A program made the position numbers and the translations under genes. This document shows positions 2,949 to 56,702 of a stretch of DNA of 64,000 nucleotides, piece by piece (the stretch's first letter is position 1; each line of letters opens with the position of its first letter). This DNA is from Chiloscyllium plagiosum (taxonomy: Eukaryota): the NCBI RefSeq assembly GCF_004010195.1, contig NC_057718.1:65484287-65548286 (forward strand). The letters are read 5' to 3'. A model generated the notes under the pieces. It was not told where the DNA came from. It was given only the letters and a program-made list of their open reading frames with translations, and did not search any database.

Positions 2949-3364
2949 TGGTGTGATGTCTCTATCTAATTAGTTTGTACAGTTTTGGATTACTTGTTAC
3001 TTTGGTTAGACCCTCCGTATGCACCTCTTATACCAACCATATCATTCCAGCCATTTGGCCTGTCTCCAGCACCACCTTATTTTGAATTCTTTGTAAATAT
3101 CTTTTTGCCTCAATTAATCGGATTATAGAGCATTCCTTCACTTGTTATTCAGTTATTGACGCTTTACTCACACCGGTTGACAGTCTTGATCATCTGCAGA
3201 GACCTATTACTCAGCCTGTTGACACTCCACTCACACTATTTGCATGGTCTTTTGATCTCTCTGATTATAAATGCTGTGCCTGTGTGCTTCTCTTCCCTTC
3301 ACCTGATGAAGGGGCAGCCCTCCTAAAGCTTATGATTTCAAATAACCCTGTTGGACTAAAACCT

Positions 3365-3558
3365 AAAAATCACACAACACCAGGTTATAGTCCAACAGGT
3401 TTAATTGGAAGCACACTAGCTTTTGGAGCGTTGCTCCTTCATCAGGTGCGACGCTCCAAAAGCTAGTGCTTTCAATTAAACCTGTTGGACTATAACCTGG
3501 TGTTGTGTGATTTTTAACTTTGTACACCCCAGTCCAACACCGACATCTCCAAATCAGA
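3365..3558. mobile_element. Non-coding fold-back PLE family A mini-element inserted into the pLTR of the older element
   Basis: Inverted arms ~3365-3432 / ~3450-3516, ~40-nt tail to 3556; TSD ACTAAAA(C/T)CT at 3355-3364 and 3559-3568; near identical to 6003-6222. Confidence 0.88.
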
Positions 3559-3649
3559 ACTAAAATCTGGTGTTGTGTGACTTTTGAGTTGGCCCATCCC
3601 AGTCCAACAACGGCACCTCCACATCATGTAAATAAGGTAAAACTGTTCG

Positions 3650-5660: not shown

Positions 5661-6095
5661 TGGGTGAGATGAAGACGCTGGAGCTGTGCTGAAGTGAACC
5701 ATTGCTGAACATTTTTTACAGTTCGGGCTGAAAAATCTCTTTTAGTTCTAATACCAGGAGCATAGAAAGACAGTGCAAAAAAGATGCCACGTAGGGCGAC
5801 TTATGTACAGAATGTGTTCTACCTTCTGGCAGCTTGGGGATTTTTGAGACCATAAAACATAGGAGCACAAGAAGGTCATTCCGTCCATCCAGCCCACTCC
5901 ACCACTCAATGAGATCATTGTTGATCTGATAATCTGTAACTCTCACTTTCCAGCCTTTTCTCCCCATACCCCTTGATTCTCTTAGTGATTTAAAAATATG
6001 GATCATGATTTGGAGATGCCGGTGTTGGACTGGGGTGTACAAAGTTAAAAATCACACAACACCAGGTTATAGTCCAACAGGTTTAATTGGAAGCA

Positions 6096-6130
6096 CACTA
6101 GCTTTCGGAGCGACGCTCCTTCATCAGGTG
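6096..6130 (-). ncRNA. Minimal type I hammerhead ribozyme motif (intact core, antisense copy)
   Basis: Exact reverse complement of 6140-6174. Confidence 0.82.
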
Positions 6131-6139
6131 AAGGACAAT

Positions 6140-6174
6140 CACCTGATGAAGGAGCGTCGCTCCGAAAGCTAGTG
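6140..6174 (+). ncRNA. Minimal type I hammerhead ribozyme motif (intact core)
   Basis: CAC-CUGAUGA-A-GGAGC-GUC-GCUCC-GAA-AG/CU-A^-GUG: stem I CAC/GUG, 5-bp stem II, palindromic AGCU stem III, CUA cleavage triplet. Confidence 0.82.
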
Positions 6175-6232
6175 CTTCCAATTAAACCTGTTGGACTATA
6201 ACCTGGCGTTGTGATTTTTAACTAAAAATATG

Positions 6233-6392
6233 GAGAAAGTGAGGATTGCAGATGCTATAGATCAGAGTCAAGTGCGTGTTGCTGGAAAAGCACAGCAGGT
6301 CAGGTAGCATCTGAGTAGCAGGAGAATTGCTGTTTCGGGCATAAGCCCTTCATCAATCAGATGGACTTTCCTGGTCAGCGTTCCTGACTCTG
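6233..6392 (-). mobile_element. PLE family B 3' fragment, truncated in the HHR core
   Basis: Reverse reads TGATGAAGGGCTTATGCCCGAAAC..GATGCTACCTGACCTGCTGTGCTTTTCCAGC; TTAAAAATATG recurs at 5990-6000 and 6396-6406. Confidence 0.8.
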
Positions 6393-6427: not shown

Positions 6428-7571
6428 ATAGGTGTTCAACAAGGTTCCCCATGGGAGACTGATTAGCAAGATTTGATCTCATGGAATACAGGGAGAACGA
6501 GCCATTTGGATACAGAACTAGCTCGAAGGACAGAGAGGGTGGTGGTGGATGGTTGTTTTTCAGACTGGAGGGCTATGACTAGTGGTGTGCCCCAAGAATC
6601 GATGCTGGATCTACTACTTTTTAATCAGTTATATAAATGATTTGGATGTGAGCTTTACAGGTATTGTTAGTAAGTTTGCAGATGACCCTAAAATTGAAGG
6701 TGTAGTGGACAGCGAAGGAGATTACCTCAGAATACAATGGGATCTTCATCAGATGGACTGATGAGTGGCAGATGGAGTTTAATTTAGATAAATGTGGGAA
6801 GCTACATTTTGGAAAGGCAAATCAAGGCAGGACTTATACCCTTAATGGTAAGGTCTTGGGGAGTGTTGCTAAACAAAGAGACCTTGGACTGCAGGTTCAT
6901 AGTTCCTTTGAAAGTAGAGTTGCAGGTTGATAGGATAGTGACAAAGGCATTTAGAATGCTTTCCTTTATAGGACTGAGTATTGAGTATAGAAGTTGGGAG
7001 GTCAGTTCAGCTGTACAGGATATTGGTTAGGCCCCTTTTGGAAAATTGTGTCCAATTCTGGTCTCCCTCCCATAGGAAGGATGTTGTGAAACTTGAAAGG
7101 GTTCAGAAAAGTTTTTTACAAGGATGTTACCAGGGTTGGAGGATTTGAGCTATAGGGAGATGTTGGATGGGCTGAGGCTGTTTTCCCGAAGCATTGGACG
7201 CTGAATGGTGACCGTATAGAGATTTATAAAATCATGAGAGGCACAGTTGAGTAAATAGACAGTCTTTTTCCCTGGGGTGGGGGAGTCCAGAACTAGAGGG
7301 TTTAGGGTGAGTGTGGAAAGATTTAAAAGGGATCAAGGGGGCAACTTTTTCATGCAGAGGGGTGGTGCGTGTATGGAATGAGTTACCAGAGGAAGTGGTG
7401 GAGGCTGGTAAAATTGTAACATTTAAAAGGCATCTGGATGGGTATATGAATAGGAATGGTTTAGAGGGATATGGGCCAAGTGCTGGCAAATGGGACTAGA
7501 TTAGGTTAGGATGTCTGGGCAGCATAGACGCATTGGACTGAAGGGTCTTTATCCGTGGTGTGCATCTCTAT
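6428..7571 (+). mobile_element. HER1/CR1 LINE 3' fragment (RT C-terminus and 3' UTR)
   Basis: KFADD, EFNLDKC, VRVWNELPEEVVEAG..FKRHLDGYM motifs with frameshifts. Confidence 0.92.
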
Positions 7572-8599: not shown

Positions 8600-8740
8600 T
8601 TCTGGTTGCTGACTGTTCTTTCCATTTCCTGATGAAAGGTCATCAACTTGAAATGTTAACTGTTTCCCTCCAGAGGTGCTGCCTGACTTGAAGGTTTACC
8701 CTTTTTGCTTCAGATTTTCAGCATCTGAAATATTTTTTGC
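8600..8740 (+). mobile_element. Old PLE pLTR fragment with decayed HHR
   Basis: CCTGATGAAAGGTCATCAACTTGAAATGTTAACT..TGCTGCCTGACTTG..CAGCATCTG. Confidence 0.6.
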
Positions 8741-9242
8741 TAAACATTTGAAGGGAATAAGGGTTAACAATAATAGGTTTAAAGTGGTGAGATGAGATTA
8801 AGCATTTGTGGACCGGCACAATAAGAGTCAGCATGAAAATATTGGTCTAATGTCCTGTTTCTGTCTTGTGTATTTCATGAAATATGACAGACCGCTTCAA
8901 ACATAATGTAACAAATATATATAAGAAGGATATTCAGACTTTTCTAATATATCTATTTGTCAAAGTCTTTAGAAGTTTGCAATCTACTGATGCATGATTG
9001 TGTAATAAAATCTGCAAAGAAACTAATCGTTTAAATTTAATTTTTTTTTTAAGAATTAATATCTGTAGGAGCCATTTTCCATTTATGTGTTGCTCAGCTG
9101 TTCTCCTTGATAAGGTGGCCCAGAGAAAGCAAACATAATCCTGCCTCCTCTTAAACCCAATGCCTTCTGCTGCAGCATATGCAGATGCAATTGTCATGCC
9201 GGAGATGGGACTCCTAAGCCACACCAGGCAATTATATTTGGG

Positions 9243-12575: not shown

Positions 12576-12937
12576 TGAAGTTAAAAATCTTGCAATACCA
12601 GGTTATAGTCCAACAGGTTTATTTGGAGGCAATAGCTTTCCAGGCACAGCTTCTTCAGGTGGTTGTGAAGCAGGACCATAAGACCCAGAATTTATAGCAA
12701 CAGATTAGTTTCGTGCAGTTGAAATGATATCTAGGTTTGTTCAATATAATCATTTCCCCTACTTGAGACTGTAATCTTTTGCTATAAATTCTGTGTCTTA
12801 AGGTCCTGCTTCACAACCACCTGATGAAGAAGCAGTGCCTCGAAAGCTAGTGCCTCCAAATAAACCTGTTGGACGATAACTTGAAGTTGTGATTTTTAAC
12901 TTTGTCTATCTCAGTCCAACACCGGCATCTCCAAATC
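12576..12937. mobile_element. Fold-back PLE family A mini-element (longer arms)
   Basis: Inverted arms ~12578-12730 / ~12745-12902 plus tail; TSD CATTTCCTGAT at 12565-12575 and 12938-12948. Confidence 0.88.
12818..12852 (+). ncRNA. Minimal hammerhead motif (core intact, one stem II mismatch)
   Basis: CAC-CTGATGA-A-GAAGC-AGT-GCCTC-GAAAGCTA-GTG. Confidence 0.7.
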
Positions 12938-16242: not shown

Positions 16243-17140
16243 GTCATAGATGTACAGCACGGAAACAGACTTGTCCATGCCGACCAGATATAACAACCAA
16301 ATCTAGTCCCACCTGCCAGCACCCGGCCCATGTCCCTCCAAACCTTTCCTATTCATCCTTGTAAATCTTTTCTGAACCCTTTCAAGTTTCACAACATCTG
16401 TCCGATAGGACGGAGGTCAGATTTGCAAGCAATATTCAAAAACTGGCCTAACCAATGTCCTGTACAGCCGCAACATGACCTCCCAACTCATATACTCAAT
16501 ATGCTGACCAGTAAAGGAAAGCATACCAAATGCCGCCTTCACTGTCCTATCTACCTGTGACTCTGCTTTCAAGGAGCTATGAACCTGCACTCCAAGGTCC
16601 CTTTGTTCAACAACACTCCCCAGGACCTTTTTTGCTTTTTCCAAAATGTAGCACCTCACATTTATCTAAATTAAACTCCATTTGCCACTCCTCAGCCCAT
16701 TGGCCCATCTGATCAAGATCCATTGTACACTGAGGTAACCTTCTTCACTGTTCACTACACCTTCAATTTTGGTGTCATCTGCAAACTTACCATCTCCTAT
16801 GCTCCCATCCAAATCATTTATATAAAATGATGCAAAGTAGTGGACCCAGCACTGATCCTTATGGCACTCCACTGGTCACAGGCCTCCAGTCTGAAAAACA
16901 ACCCTCCACCACCAACATCTGTCTTGTACCTTCAAGCCTGTTCTGTATCCAAATGGCTAGGTTTCCCTGTACTCCACGAGATCTAACCTTGCTCACCAGT
17001 CTCCCATGGGGAACCTTGTCGAACACTTTTTACTGAAGTCCATAGAGCACGCCTACTGCTCTGCCCTCATCAATCCTCTTTGTTACTACTTCAAAAAATT
17101 CAATCAAGCTTGATACATGATTTCCCATGCACAAAGCCAA
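16243..17140 (-). mobile_element. HER1/CR1 LINE 3' fragment with internal deletion
   Basis: ORFs 16417-16659 and 16666-16872 (KFADDTKI, DLGVQVH, LYRTLVRP); tail GTCATAGATGTACAGCACGGAAAC. Confidence 0.92.
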
Positions 17141-34129: not shown

Positions 34130-35072
34130 ATGTCAAGAGTCCGTGCCAACCAGCTATCCTAATCTCGTCTAAACCTTTCCTCTCTATATATCCATCTGGA
34201 CGCCTTTTAAATATTCTAATTGTACTAGCCTGTACCACTTAGAGTCATAGAGATGTACAGCATGAAAACAGACCCTTCAGTCCACTCGTTATGCCGACCC
34301 AGATATCCCAACCCAATCTAATCCCACCTGCTAGCACCTGGCCCATATCCCTCCAAACCCTTCCTATTCATATACCCATCCAGATGCCTTTTAAATGTTG
34401 CAATTGTCCCAGCCTCCTCCACATCCTCTGGCAGCTCATTCCATACATGTACCACCATCTGCATGAAAAATTTGCCCCTTAGGGTCTCTTTTATCTCTTT
34501 TGCCTCTCACCCTAAACCTATGCCCTCTAGTTCTGGACTTCCCGACCCCAGGGGAAAGATTTTGTGTATTTATCCTATCCATGCCTCTCATGATTTTATA
34601 AACCTCTATAAGGTCACCCCTCAGCCTCCTACGCTCCAGGGAAAACAGCCCCAGCCTGTTCAGCCTCTCCCTATAGCTCAAATCCTCCAACCCTGGCAAC
34701 ATCCTTATAAATCTTTTCTGAACCCTTTCAAGTTTCACACCCCCTTTCTGATTGGAAGGAGACCCGAACTGCACGCAATATTCCAACAGTGGCCTAACCA
34801 AATGTCCTGCTTAGTCGCAACATGACGTCCCAACTCCTGTACTCAATACTCTGACCAATAAAAGAAAGCATGCCAAATGCCGCCTTCACTATCCTACCTA
34901 CCTGCGACTCCACTTTCAAGGAGCTATGAACCTGCACTCCAAGGTCTGTTTGTTCAGCAACACTCTGTAGGACCTTACCATTAAGTGTATAAGTTGTGCG
35001 AAGATTTGCTTTCCCAAAAGGCAGCACCTCACATTTATCTAAATTAAACTCCATCTGCAACGTCTCAGCCCA
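34130..35072 (-). mobile_element. HER1/CR1 LINE 3' fragment (34241-35072) abutting an older tail piece
   Basis: ORFs 34794-35060 and 34436-34801 (RPLLEYCVQF..RRLRGDLIEVYKIM). Confidence 0.93.
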
Positions 35073-46996: not shown

Positions 46997-48054
46997 TCAC
47001 CGTTTTTATTCGCTGCCCCACAATTCAGAACTAAAAGATAGTTTTGCTGATATGAATGTGCTTTGACCTTCACAGAATCATCATGGTGATAGCATCCACC
47101 ATTCAGCTTGACAAGCATACAGTGGCTCTCCAATGGAACACTTTATCTAATGCCACTCGCTGTAGCTCTGCACATGCAATGTTTCAGATGGTAATCTAAT
47201 TCCTCCTTTAAATAATCAATTGAATCTATTTACTTCTACCACACTCTGGCACTCCATCCTAAATCCCAAATGCTCCTTGCATGAAACATTTTTTCTTTGT
47301 CTCCATTGTTTTTGCCATTTTGGTTAAAACTGTGCCCTGACTGATTCTGCAAACCATGCTGTTGATGCTCCTGTAGCTAACTATCATGTCTGTATGAATC
47401 TTATGTAAAAATTGTTGAATAGATGAACAGGTTTCTTGCTCTCTATACAGCGGATGTGGAGGGCGAGAATGTAGACTAGGAGAGGGAGCACTGCTTTAAA
47501 AGTAAAGGATCATCTATTTCGGACAAATGAATTCCTTTTTCCAATGAGAAGCATCGGAAGCAGAAGCTCTGCATGTTTTTAAAGAGGTGATTGCTGTAAG
47601 TAAGGGCATGGAAAGGTAATCAGGTGTAGACAAATTTTGGGCTACAAACAGATCAGCCATGATGTTCTTAAATGGCAGAGCAGGCACAAGGGGCCAAACT
47701 GCCAATTCCTGCTCCTGTCAACATAGGGGTCAACTCCTGCTCCTATCAACATCGGGTCAAGTGCAATTTGCCTTTCGTGGGTGAAGTATGCCTGAAAGAG
47801 TAGTGTAAGATGAGGGATTCCCTTTAACAAGGTGGCTGTACTGGGATGGGAACCTTGTCCTATCGGGGATAAATAGGGTAGTCAGAAAGACTGAACTTAC
47901 AAATTGTTAGAATTGTTGGGTTGATGGCAGAAATGAAGAACTTGGACAAAAAGGTAATATAGATAATAGTTCAAACAATTCAAAGTTTGGGTGAAGATTT
48001 GTAGCTCAGGTGCTCGTTATTGTGGTTCTGTTCGCCGAGCTGGAAATGTTTGTT

Positions 48055-48094
48055 GCAAACGTTTCGTCCCCTGTCTAGGTGACATCCTCAGTGC
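48055..48094 (-). ncRNA. Minimal type I hammerhead ribozyme motif (intact)
   Basis: GCA-CUGAGGA-U-GUC(ACCUAGACAGGG)GAC-GAA-AC/GU-U^-UGC; palindromic ACGU stem III. Confidence 0.82.
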
Positions 48095-49346
48095 TTGGGA
48101 GCCTCCTGTGAAGCGCTTCTGTGGTGTTTCCTCCGGCATTTATAGTGGCCTGTCCCTGCCGCTTCCGGTTGTCAGTTTCAGCTGTCCGCTGTAGTGGCCG
48201 GTATATTGGGTCCAGGTCGATGTGTTTGTTGATGGAGTTTGTGGATGAGTGCCATGCTTCTAGGAATTCCCTGGCTGTTCTCTGTTTGGCTTGTCCTATA
48301 ATGGTAGTGTTGTCCCAGTCGAATTCATGTTGCTTGTCGTTTGCGTGTGTGGCTACGATCAGCTATCCTTAGTAAACGCCACGACCAGCTATCCTTAGCC
48401 ACTCACGCAGACGACGAGCAACATGAATTCGACTGAGACAACACTACCATTATAGGGCAAGCCAAACAAAGAACAGCCAGGGAATTCCTAGAAGCATGGC
48501 ACTCATCCACAAACTCCATCAACAAACACATCGACCTGGACCCAATATACCGGCCACTACAGCGGACAGCTGAAATATACAGGAAAGCCACACACACACA
48601 CCAAGTCCAGAATTATGAAAGCAACCACCCCAACACACACAAACGAAGTTGCATCAAGACACTATTCAAAAGGGCCACAACACACTGCAGTACACCAGAA
48701 CTGCAAAAAGAGGAAGAGGAACACCTGTACAAGGTATTCGCCAAAAACGGATACCCGCGCAATTTCATCAACAGATGCCTAAGAGAAAGACAACGGAACG
48801 AGGACATGCCACAACCCAAAGGACTAGCCACACTACCATACATCAGGAGCATTTCAGAACTGACAGCCAGATTACTGCGATCACTAGGACTTATAACAGC
48901 ACACAAACCAACAGCTACTCTCAGACAACAACTCACCAGAACGAAGGACCCGATACCCAGCATGAGCAAAACTAATGTAGTGTACAAAGTCCCATGCAAG
49001 GACTGCACAAAACACTATAGGTCAAACAGGAAGACAGCTAATGATCCGCATCCATGAACATCAACTAGCCACGAAACGCCACGACCAGCCACACACGCAG
49101 ACGACAAGCAACATGAATTCGACTGGGACAACACTACCATTATAGGGCAAGCCAAACAAAGAACAGCCAGGGAATTCCTAGAAGCATAGCACTCATCCAC
49201 AAACTCCATCAACAAACACATCGACCTGGACCCAATATACCGGCCACTACAGCGGACAGCTGAAACTGACAACCGGAAGCGGCAGGGACAGGCCACTATA
49301 AATGCCGGAGGAAACACCACAGAAGCGCTTCACAGGAGGCTCCCAA

Positions 49347-49386
49347 GCACTGAGGATGTCACCTAGACAGGGGACAAAACGTTTGC
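49347..49386 (+). ncRNA. Hammerhead motif with G12>A substitution (predicted inactive)
   Basis: Identical to the reverse complement of 48055-48094 except GACAAAAC instead of GACGAAAC at 49376. Confidence 0.75.
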
Positions 49387-49566
49387 AACAAAACTTTCCA
49401 GCTCGGCGAACACAACCACAACAGTTCAAACAATAAAGGTATTTGAGCATTTTAAAATTGTGCTTTATGTGCAACAGATGGAGGCAACTAACAGTAGTTT
49501 AATGTAATTAAACTAGGAGAGAAAAATAAGATGAACAGAGTAAAATTTAGAGCAAAAGTACATGTT

Positions 49567-53857: not shown

Positions 53858-55802
53858 AAGTAGTTGGAGGGAATCCTGAGGGACAGGAATTACATGTATT
53901 TGGAAAGGCAAGGATTGATTAGGGATAGGCAATATGGTTTTGTGCATGGAAAATCATGCCTCACAAACTTGATTGGGTTTTTTGAAGAAGCAACAAAGGA
54001 TTGATGAGGGTAGAGTGGTGGACGTGATCTATATGTACTTCAGTAGGGCATTCGACAAGGTTCCCCGTGGGAGACTGATATTAGCAAGGTTAGATCACAT
54101 GGAATACAGGGAAACCTAGCCATTTCGATACTGAACAGATTGAAGGTAGAAGACAGAGGATGGTGTTGGAGGGTTGCTTTTCAGACTGGAGGCCTGTGAC
54201 CAGTGGAGTGCCACAAGGATCACTGCTGGGTCCACTACTTTTCATCATTTTATATAAATGATTTGGATGTGAGCATAAGAGGTTATAGTTGGTAAGTTTG
54301 CAGATGACACCAAAATTGGAAATGTAGTGGACAGTGAAGAAGGTTACCTCAGATTACAATGGGATCTTGATCAGGTGGACCAATTGGTTGAGGAGTGGCA
54401 GATGGAGTTTAATTTCGATAAATGTGAGGTGCTGCATTTTGGAAAAATCAAATCTTAGCAGGACTTATACACTTAATGGTAAGGTCCTGGGGAGTGTTGT
54501 TGAACAAAGAGACCTTGGAGTGCAGGTTCATAATTCCTTGAAAGTAGAGTCACAGCTAGACAGGACAGTGAAGAAGGCGTTTGGTATGCTTTCCTTTATT
54601 GATTAGAGTATTGAGTACATGAGTTGGGAGGTCATGTTGCGGCTGTACAGGGACATTGGTTAGGCCACTTTTGGAATATTGCATGTGAATCTGGTCTCCA
54701 TCCAATTGGACAGATGTTGTAAAACATGAAAGGGTTCAGAAAAGGTTTACAAAGATGTTGCCAGGGTTGGAGGGATATGAGCTATAGGGAGAGGCTCAAT
54801 AGGCCAGGGCTGTTCTGCCTGGAGTGTCGGAAGCTGAGGGGTGACCTTTTACAATGGTTGATAAAGTCATGTGGGGGCATTGATAGGATAAATAGACAGT
54901 CTTTTTCCTGCGGTGGTTGAGTCCAGAACTGGAAGGCATAGGTTTAGGTGAGAGGGAAAAAATTTAAAAGGGACCTAAGTGGCAACATTCTCACAGAGGG
55001 TGATGTCTGTACGGAATGAGCTGTCAGAGGAAGTGGTGGAGGCTGGTACAATTGCAACATTTAAAAGGCATCTGGATGGGTATATGAATAGGAAGGGTTT
55101 GGAGCAATATGGGCCAAGTGCTGGAAAATGGAGTAGATTAGGTTAGGATATCTGATCGGCATAGACGAGTTGGTCCGAAGGGTCTGTTTTCGTGCTGTAC
55201 ATCTGACTCTAAATTAGTGATGAATTAATTTAAAATTGAGATGGATATTAAAGGATATGGGGAAAGGTGATATATGGAGTAGTGATGCAGTCATCAAAAC
55301 AGGATCTTCTGTCCACCAAGACTATGTCGACCCAGAAGCACCAAACTCTGTTAATCCAATTTACCTATACTTGGTACATAGCCTTCTACGCCTGGGCATT
55401 TTCAGTACTCCTCCAGCTGCTGCTTTAATGTTGCAGGAGTACCTGCCTCCACCCTCTCAGGCAACATGTTCCATATCTGCCGCACTCTGGTTGGAAAAAC
55501 AATTGTTCGGATCTCCCCAAACCACTTGCTCCTTGCCTTTTTAAACTTTGCCTTCTGGTCTTGCACATGTCTGCCGTGGGGAAGATTAACTCCTGTCTAT
55601 GCTTATAATTTTCTATACCTCCATCAAGTTCCACCCCCACTTCCCCAACCTCCTCAACATTTTCTGCTCCAACGAAAAGAAACACAGCCTATCCAGTCTC
55701 CTCCTCCCGTGTTAACACTTTTTATCCCAGGCAACGTTCTAGTGAATCTACGCTGCACCCTCTAATACAATGACATTCTTCTGATAGCATGGGAACCAGA
55801 AC

Positions 55803-56420
55803 TTTTGTTGGTCAGAGTATTGAGTACATGAGTTGGGAGGTCATGTTGCGGCTGTACAGGACTTTGGTTAGGCCACTGTTGGAATATTGCAAGCAATTCT
55901 GGTCTCCTTCCTATCGGAAGGATGTTGTGAAACTTGAAAGGGCTCAGAAAAGATTTACGAGGATGTTGCCAGGGTTGGAGGATTTGAGCTATAGGGAGAG
56001 GCTGAACAGGCTGGGGCTGTTTTCCCTGGTACGTCGGAGGCTGAGGGGTGACCTCTATAGGGGTTTACAAAATTGAGGGGCATGGATAGGGTAAATAGGA
56101 AAAGTCTTTTCCCTGGGGTCGGGTAGTCCAGAACTAGAGGGCATAGGTTTAGGGTGAGAGGGGAAAGATCTAAAAGAGACCTAAGGGGCAACTTTTTCAT
56201 GCAGAGTGTGGTATGAGTATGGGATGAGCTGCCAGAGGAAGTGGTGGAGGCTAGTACAATTGCAGCATTTAAGAGGGATTTGGATGGGTATATGAATGGG
56301 AAGGGTTTGGAGGGATATGGGCTGGCAGGTGGGGCTAGATAGGGTCGAGCTACCTGGTCGGCGTGGACGAGTTGGACTGAAGGGTTTGTTTCCATGCTGT
56401 ACATCTCTATGATTCTATGA
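55803..56420 (+). mobile_element. Young HER1/CR1 LINE 3' fragment
   Basis: ORF 55789-56076; tail CATCTCTATGATTCTATGACT. Confidence 0.93.
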
Positions 56421-56702
56421 CTTCCTTGCTTCTATATTCAGTGTCCTGGCTAATGAAGTGCATCTTCTTGTATGATCCCTTCACTCTGGTTAATTGTGCT
56501 GATACCTTCAGGGATCTATGGACTTGTACACCAAGGTCCCTCTGTTCCTCAGTACTTCCTCGGGACCTACACTTCATTGTGTATATCTTTCCTTTATTAG
56601 ATGTCCCAAAATGCATCACTCCTCTCTTATCCGGATTAAATTCAATCTGACATTGCTTTGCCCAATTTACCAGCTGTTCAATATCTGACTGGAGCCTGAG
56701 AC

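Follow-up and report, generated by a model that had tools for sequence, protein, structure and literature searches.

The 64,000-nt window analysed here, a stretch of Chiloscyllium plagiosum contig NC_057718.1, contains at 6003–6222 an insertion in which two copies of the end of a pseudo-LTR (pLTR) stand head to head, each with an exact minimal type I hammerhead motif, between the two halves of a 12-bp target-site duplication (TSD). Positions within the pLTR are numbered from the first C of hammerhead stem I (position 0; window 6140, plus strand); on this scale the predicted cut falls before +32, the pLTR ends at +86/87 and the ATG of the element ORF is at +124. The features of this locus and of two related copies are as follows.

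5991–6002: left TSD, 12 bp, identical to 6223–6234
6003–6043 (-): 41-nt unpaired, one-sided "tail"; the tail end includes the ATG of the element's ORF (6006–6004)
6044–6131 (-): tail-bearing pLTR arm, from -1 to the pLTR end; 97.7% to long copy L267 over -1 to +127
6096–6130 (-): minimal type I hammerhead, exact motif; predicted to be sequestered in the hairpin RNA
6132–6133 (+): 2-nt junction filler, non-pLTR at that position; junction unique in the genome
6134 (+): untemplated G, likely a reverse-transcribed cap; C in 69/74 long copies, G in 27/29 arms ending at -5
6135–6222 (+): pLTR arm lacking the tail; begins at the A (6135, -5) where transcription is inferred to start and runs to the pLTR end; 93.5% to L267 over -5 to +87
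6140–6174 (+): minimal type I hammerhead, exact motif; cut predicted after 6171
6181–6186 (+): likely polyadenylation hexamer ATTAAA (AATAAA in another subfamily); the T/A subfamily site at +44 keeps a valid hexamer
6223–6234: right TSD, 12 bp, exact direct repeat of 5991–6002
3364–3562 (+): further hairpin copy whose arms begin at 0 and, within the hammerhead, at +10; the duplication is a 7-nt candidate only
12576–12937 (+): older, longer hairpin copy with arms reaching -80 and -70 and the TATA motif retained; 11-bp duplication (12565/12938)

Alignment of the arms (6044–6131 against 6139–6222) gives 83 matches in 88 columns, the remainder being one substitution and two 2-nt indels, and leaves a loop of 7 nt (6132–6138), and the two hammerheads lie on opposite strands, 44 nt apart from start to start. 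The flanking direct repeat fits only at 12 bp when lengths of 5 to 24 are tried, and the duplicated 12-mer occurs just twice in the window. The initial annotation had described inverted arms around a 7-nt spacer within a 12-bp TSD, and this picture stands; the one-sided 41-nt unpaired extension at 6003–6043 had been overlooked, and only AG(G) at 6132–6134 of the spacer is foreign, 6135–6138 being pLTR sequence. The filler at 6132–6133 may be a short patch copied from the hammerhead. The 35-nt motif is exact where it had been placed on either strand, with the cut after 6171 by hammerhead numbering, and the early description of it as a minimal type I hammerhead, in which position 9 is followed by an extra base and stem III is self-complementary, agrees with the accessible text of PMC4209133. 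Relatives noted near 3365–3558 and 12576–12937 proved to be the two further hairpins listed above. Older fragments of the same pLTR lie at 3299–3364, 3559–3628 and 1578–1648, and the position of the 3364–3562 hairpin inside or beside an older pLTR fragment suggests insertion into an older copy.

The arms at 6003–6222 are the pLTR of a Penelope-like element (PLE) encoding reverse transcriptase (RT) and a GIY-YIG domain, the origin that had also been proposed at first inspection. In long copy L061, which is frameshifted, one frame matches the RT domain PF00078 (Pfam, E 1.9e-8) and another resembles GIY-YIG, matching the GIY-YIG region of P0015 (33% over 76 aa, E 1e-10) but giving no direct Pfam match. 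The coding region of this copy is flanked by 630-bp inverted repeats ending in the same pLTR as the hairpin, and the closest named relatives of its protein are uncharacterised shark proteins (all of the top 5 of 15 matches). Between the RT and GIY-YIG frames lie a CKTC linker and a further Cys region, a zinc-finger-like motif of the kind that the accessible portions of PMC8557442 describe as common to Neptune and Nematis; at the level of sequence, the CxxC linker suggests that the parent belongs to one of these two groups. Copies that include the ORF start run from the pLTR through the tail directly into the ATG (MTTIDT...), which identifies the 41-nt extension as the PLE tail, and 5 of 19 such loci are preceded by a TATA-bearing pLTR, giving the partial-tandem layout usual for PLEs. 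In 101 of 161 tails the six bases that finish with the AT of the ATG are the same, after which the sequences diverge, and a 46-nt word spanning the pLTR end and the extension has 5,988 copies in the genome. An intact full-length parent was not found among 12 long stretches, which were truncated, frameshifted or interrupted by runs of N. The locus and its parent together show the features of EN+ PLEs, namely an RT plus GIY-YIG parent, partial-tandem or inverted pLTRs, a one-sided tail, a TSD and a hammerhead in the pLTR. At 2078–2701, within an inverted arm of L061, there is also a tandem array of about 26 units with a 24-nt period.

Several other repeats occur in the window. A 1.4-kb inverted-repeat insertion at 48020–49421 has 335-nt arms (98%), a 12-bp flank duplication (47968/49423) and, at 48091 (-), a different hammerhead-like core; it is likely another PLE family with the same head-to-head layout. 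A second repeat family, starting at the right duplication of the hairpin (6232–6347, minus strand; relatives at 9235, 44606 and 52789), contains a decayed hammerhead-like core and is likely the pLTR and tail of yet another PLE family. Hammerhead-core-like motifs with different stem II sequences occur at 8629 (+), 57047 (+) and 56826 (-), the last two, separated by about 220 nt, making an opposite-strand pair. Large interspersed repeat families, which are probably LINE 3′ ends, are represented by many decayed copies, at 6965–7571, 16354–17026, 34298–35072, 54140–56664 and elsewhere.

The exact 35-nt motif occurs 5,931 times in the 3.56-Gb genome and its reversed control not once, which is well outside what chance would give. 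A scan of 6003–6222 against Rfam returned no hammerhead family at E≤1, the only matches being sub-threshold miRNA hairpins. These miRNA matches lie far below threshold and are artefacts of the hairpin. Structure prediction indicates that in hairpin RNA of either polarity the hammerhead would be paired with the antisense arm, with a stem II probability of about 1e-18, and that forcing the hammerhead fold would cost about 55 kcal/mol. A double-hammerhead fold is computed at -17.3 kcal/mol versus -32.7 for the best dimer. On these predictions neither polarity has the foldable ribozyme that would be expected in each polarity of a viroid-like unit. Related motifs cleave weakly or require protein, according to the accessible text of PMC4209133 and PMC11167929.

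These predictions bear on whether such hairpins copy themselves. The initial annotation raised the possibility of a self-propagating, non-autonomous, retrozyme- or viroid-like ambisense unit, with a working hammerhead in each polarity and possibly spreading via circular RNA. Intact motifs on both strands fit that idea, as does sheer abundance, hammerhead starts standing head to head within 30 nt at 1,471 places in the genome and one arm starting inside the hammerhead at 1,769. Genome-wide comparison of junctions, named in advance as the refuting test, gave a different picture: the exact junction of 6003–6222 occurs once in the genome, and junctions were distinct in 41 of the first 50 of the 1,471 places. 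Six short junctions do recur among the 50, the commonest in 4 and another in 3, but these are blunt or microhomology joins of the kind expected from a fixed end. One 10-nt filler is present at two loci with different flanks (L184 and L185), which could speak for re-copying of a finished hairpin; the two carry the tail on opposite arms, so we rejected this as proof, and the shared filler fits convergence. A flank word of at least 8 nt was shared in 44 of the 50 sampled hairpins, with a mode of 12, compared with 5 of 50 mismatched-flank controls, indicating that the sampled hairpins are separate insertions. The locus is moreover a single head-to-head insertion with no head-to-tail tandem, the TATA motif is lost, the hammerheads are predicted to be buried, and ends are not piled up at the predicted cut, with 5 of 90 tail arms in +29 to +39 at a density no higher than that of neighbouring bins. 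In sum, 6003–6222 is almost certainly an independently formed PLE stub rather than a replicon, and the self-propagating unit, which we regard as highly improbable, is largely refuted. The other early suggestion, independent truncation of every copy, was right about separate formation; "random extreme truncation" is too weak a description, given that the ends pile up and are accompanied by an untemplated G.

The distribution of arm ends was obtained from 90 of the first 91 listed tail-anchored copies. All samples consist of the first listed places, nearly all on one chromosome, and the alignment walk misplaces some ends as judged by eye (e.g. L080, L094, L096, L103 and L140). A first, likeness-based genome search favours junctions resembling the query and was left out of the end statistics. 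Among the 90 tail arms, 37 end in -10 to +5, one in -40 to -11, 15 further upstream and 37 downstream of +5; the imbalance between the first two intervals has p 3e-16 against a uniform distribution over the 46 nt. End density is about 3 per nt at -6 to +5 and 0.03–0.05 upstream, a fall of about 60-fold across -10. An inverted partner lies within 60 nt in 47 of the 90, and the partners end in the same place (26 of 47 in -10 to +5, none in -40 to -11). The absence of a pile-up at the predicted cut was also seen by eye in the genome set with one arm starting inside the hammerhead, where 4 of the first 100 matches ended there; the lack of a pile-up at this site implies that the RT template was mostly uncut RNA, and uncut hammerhead RNA serves as a template in vitro for the anole PLE described in the accessible text of PMC11167929. 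In L088, L106 and L091 the tail arm is cut back to +43 to +72 and the partner ends near -6, which reads as uneven trimming before joining.

Of the 100 arms that meet at the 50 junctions, 29 have their stop at -5, and in 27 of these 29 the next base is G; a further 23 of 100 extend to -6 to -9, so the end is not one single base. The partner arm can itself supply a G, and the comparison was for this reason restricted to junctions with at least two filler bases, where G follows 12 of 14 stops at -5 versus 15 of 42 other stops (p 0.0013); microhomology between partner arms can account for some of the G excess. A genome-wide count of arms with G, A or T at -6 gave 2,744 with G versus 1,227 for A or T together, and long copies have C at -6 in 69 of 74. 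Measured upstream from the A at -5, the distance to the first T of the TATA motif is 30 nt in 54 of 74 long copies and 32 nt in 17 of 74. The bases around this A fit the initiator consensus. The hairpin at 6003–6222 itself has G at 6134 and A at 6135. An extra untemplated G at the fixed 5′ end of L1 and SVA has been attributed to copying of the cap in the accessible text of PMC3287187. Taken together, the pile-up, the G and the TATA spacing lead us to read the stop as run-off at a capped start site, and the sequence evidence makes it likely that the arm stop marks the RNA start of the PLE. Promoters described in other PLEs differ in this regard, the accessible parts of the literature reporting a TATA-less internal promoter in D. 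virilis Penelope (PMC2377424) and a putative TATA plus initiator in a rotifer pLTR (PMC3846280).

The pile-up at -5 could instead reflect stalling or RNA breakage at the base of the hammerhead, or trimming of longer inverted copies back to that point after insertion, with the G contributed by end joining or terminal transferase. Consistent with such an origin, no site where many molecules begin was seen in poly(A) reads of a related organism, a weak test of RNA 5′ ends, and contigs X1 and X2 gave no starts; G is also frequent at other stops, and longer hairpins such as 12576–12937 exist. Copies running into the ORF likewise do not start with G at -5 (none of 17 distinct copies, with 4 starting in -13 to +5, 6 further upstream and 7 downstream), although one of the 17 has a partner arm ending at -5 plus G. 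Against this, the stop lies 30 nt below a TATA motif, the density of ends falls about 60-fold across -10 and, by our own reasoning, a structural stall would be expected on the 3′ side of the stem and not after it. We accordingly consider stalling or trimming quite unlikely as the source of the fixed end. A 3′ splice site was considered as well, the accessible text of PMC4209133 reporting for D. virilis an intron end at helix I that suggested such a reading, and was rejected for lack of an upstream AG. In relatives, four RNA reads and one contig connect the ORF back to the -5 A with a G preceding it (L267 1554/1558 to 1341); these could be genomic head-to-tail joins or circles.

A separate question is whether the two arms of a hairpin derive from one RNA or two. 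Four subfamily markers, the bases at -1, +17 and +44 and a GT indel beyond the cut site, show linkage within single arms, and partner arms were compared at these sites in 118 pairs, after 28 that had been picked by likeness to 6003–6222 were dropped. Partner arms were discordant at +17 in 9 of 70 pairs (background 0.8%) and at -1, a site close to the junction, in 9 of 21 (background 2.1%), about 16–20 times background at these two substitution sites; at the GT indel they differed in 25 of 112, versus 7 of 113 for a control indel (3.6-fold), and at +44 in 3 of 118 (background 0.4%). The arms of 6003–6222 themselves differ at the GT indel. Double discordance in phase is weak (6 in phase versus 3 out of phase across site pairs). 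Folding back of a single molecule gives identical arms, and the alleles thus make it likely that at least a good fraction of hairpins was made from two RNA templates.

Fold-back or self-priming, in which one cDNA (or antisense RNA) folds near the hammerhead and copies itself and the arms come to differ by later mutation or by gene conversion templated by the numerous other copies, was proposed for head-to-head PLE structures in the accessible text of PMC3846280. Some junctions are perfect palindromes, as this would predict, and most arm pairs are concordant, more so than under random pairing (27 discordant versus 57 expected at the GT indel). However, we infer that majority concordance would also be expected if the subfamilies were active at different times, and partner arms differ at the subfamily sites well above background, to which later gene conversion may have contributed. 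L166 and L202, moreover, have filler between two arms that each stop at -5 and carry the G, and self-priming does not account for the two different termini, the pLTR end in one arm and the tail end in its partner. A single self-copied molecule is for these reasons an unlikely general source of the hairpins, and joining of two cDNAs is the reading that we carry forward.

Position of the polyadenylation site is relevant to what an ordinary transcript could template. In raw single-cell poly(A) reads from a related organism (run X21, of which about 2% was read, giving 2,465 matching reads from one sample), an A-run follows L267 1406 and 1409 (+60 and +63, equivalent to window 6198 and 6201) in 339 and 400 reads, where the DNA has no A-run. 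Both sites lie 12–15 nt after ATTAAA and before a GT-rich tract, and the +44 subfamily change toggles the hexamer between ATTAAA and AATAAA. The reads may come from host transcripts that end in pLTR copies. If the site also holds for element mRNA, both RT start sites lie downstream of it, and the mRNA carries them only near its 5′ end.

The observations can be accommodated by a mechanism in which 6003–6222 consists of head-to-head pLTR ends laid down in one insertion event from two short cDNAs whose synthesis finished by run-off at the RNA's capped 5′ end, an account that we consider probable. Pol II would start at the A at -5 and the RNA would be capped. The endonuclease would nick both target strands about 12 bp apart, and RT would start internally, at the pLTR end and at the tail end, on the two nicked strands and often on different RNA molecules. 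Both cDNAs (about 90 and 130 nt) would pass through the uncut hammerhead to the cap, which would be copied as an extra base, and their 3′ ends would then be cut back and connected through microhomology or short patches copied from a template. Such an insertion, with its TATA box lost and neither hammerhead predicted to fold, would be a dead end. Were polyadenylation to take place in the pLTR, ahead of the two RT start sites, ordinary mRNA would give short hairpins by default, and full-length copies would require read-through RNA. The in vitro behaviour of the anole PLE is compatible with the early steps, the accessible text of PMC11167929 describing two RT start sites flanking the tail, extension on both strands, an uncut RNA substrate and a predicted protein dimer.

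A broader reading, to which we give somewhat less than even weight, is that the hairpins constitute a fossil record of PLE insertion as a whole. It would involve a protein dimer, two capped RNAs, two internal start sites and cap run-off, acting on a pLTR with an LTR-like layout (TATA upstream, start at -5, hammerhead inside, poly(A) at +60) in which RT starts lie past the poly(A) site, such that ordinary mRNA yields promoterless hairpins only and master copies need read-through tandem RNA. If true, one account would cover why copies are inverted, why they carry a tail and why tandems are needed. For the origin of inverted copies in PLEs, self-priming has been proposed (PMC3846280), and two internal RT starts have been seen in vitro (PMC11167929), the later steps of which are unexplained in the accessible text; a direct test between these models is offered by thousands of hairpins in which arms of mixed subfamilies stop at a fixed end with a cap-like G. 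The same population maps a likely start site without RNA data, and suggests why PLEs need tandem copies.

The layout of an inverted pLTR with a tail has been published, and 6003–6222 is an ordinary kind of PLE insertion. The accessible portions of PMC8557442 and PMC3846280 describe complex EN+ PLE insertions with inverted 5′-truncated pLTRs, a one-sided 30–40-bp tail and a TSD; head-to-head pLTRs, the pLTR hammerhead and full-length copies in partial tandem are likewise shared with the present element. The insert here differs in consisting of two pLTR ends only, with a fixed stop and an extra G, whereas those papers describe variable truncation and suggest self-priming. In the open-access literature we found no paper on PLEs that deals with a cap G, a run-off end at a fixed position, polyadenylation within the pLTR or the joining of two templates; within that literature, the fixed end with a cap-like G, the evidence for two templates and the pLTR poly(A) site are new here. 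Anole Poseidon PAc resembles this element in having two RT start sites that bound the tail, extension of both target strands and an uncut hammerhead template, and differs in that its ORF starts inside the hammerhead rather than at the tail end (PMC11167929, accessible text); the CxxC linker found here is typical of Neptune and Nematis, not Poseidon. The accessible text of the PAc paper offers no explanation of inverted copies or of a fixed 5′ run-off. An extra G at a fixed 5′ end of reverse-transcribed Pol II RNA is shared with L1 and SVA as described in the accessible text of PMC3287187, except that here the G lies mid-hairpin between two cDNA ends and not beside the TSD.

The hammerhead itself resembles the minimal PLE hammerheads in the accessible text of PMC4209133, with an extra base after position 9, a palindromic stem III and a short stem I. 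That 2014 study tied opposite-strand hammerhead pairs 100–700 bp apart to truncated PLEs; the two motifs here lie nearer to each other (44 nt) and are complementary from end to end, the motif itself being no difference. Non-LTR retrozymes, as presented in the accessible portions of PMC7229834 and bioRxiv 10.64898/2026.07.22.740005, share a non-coding nature, a type I hammerhead and kinship to PLE pLTRs. They are organised as head-to-tail tandems with two same-strand ribozymes from which circles are released, whereas the copies described here are dispersed and head to head with one sense ribozyme per strand, and 6003–6222, a single insertion, has neither a tandem same-strand pair nor a shared internal junction. 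Opposite-strand hammerhead pairs in genomes need not, then, be viroid-like.
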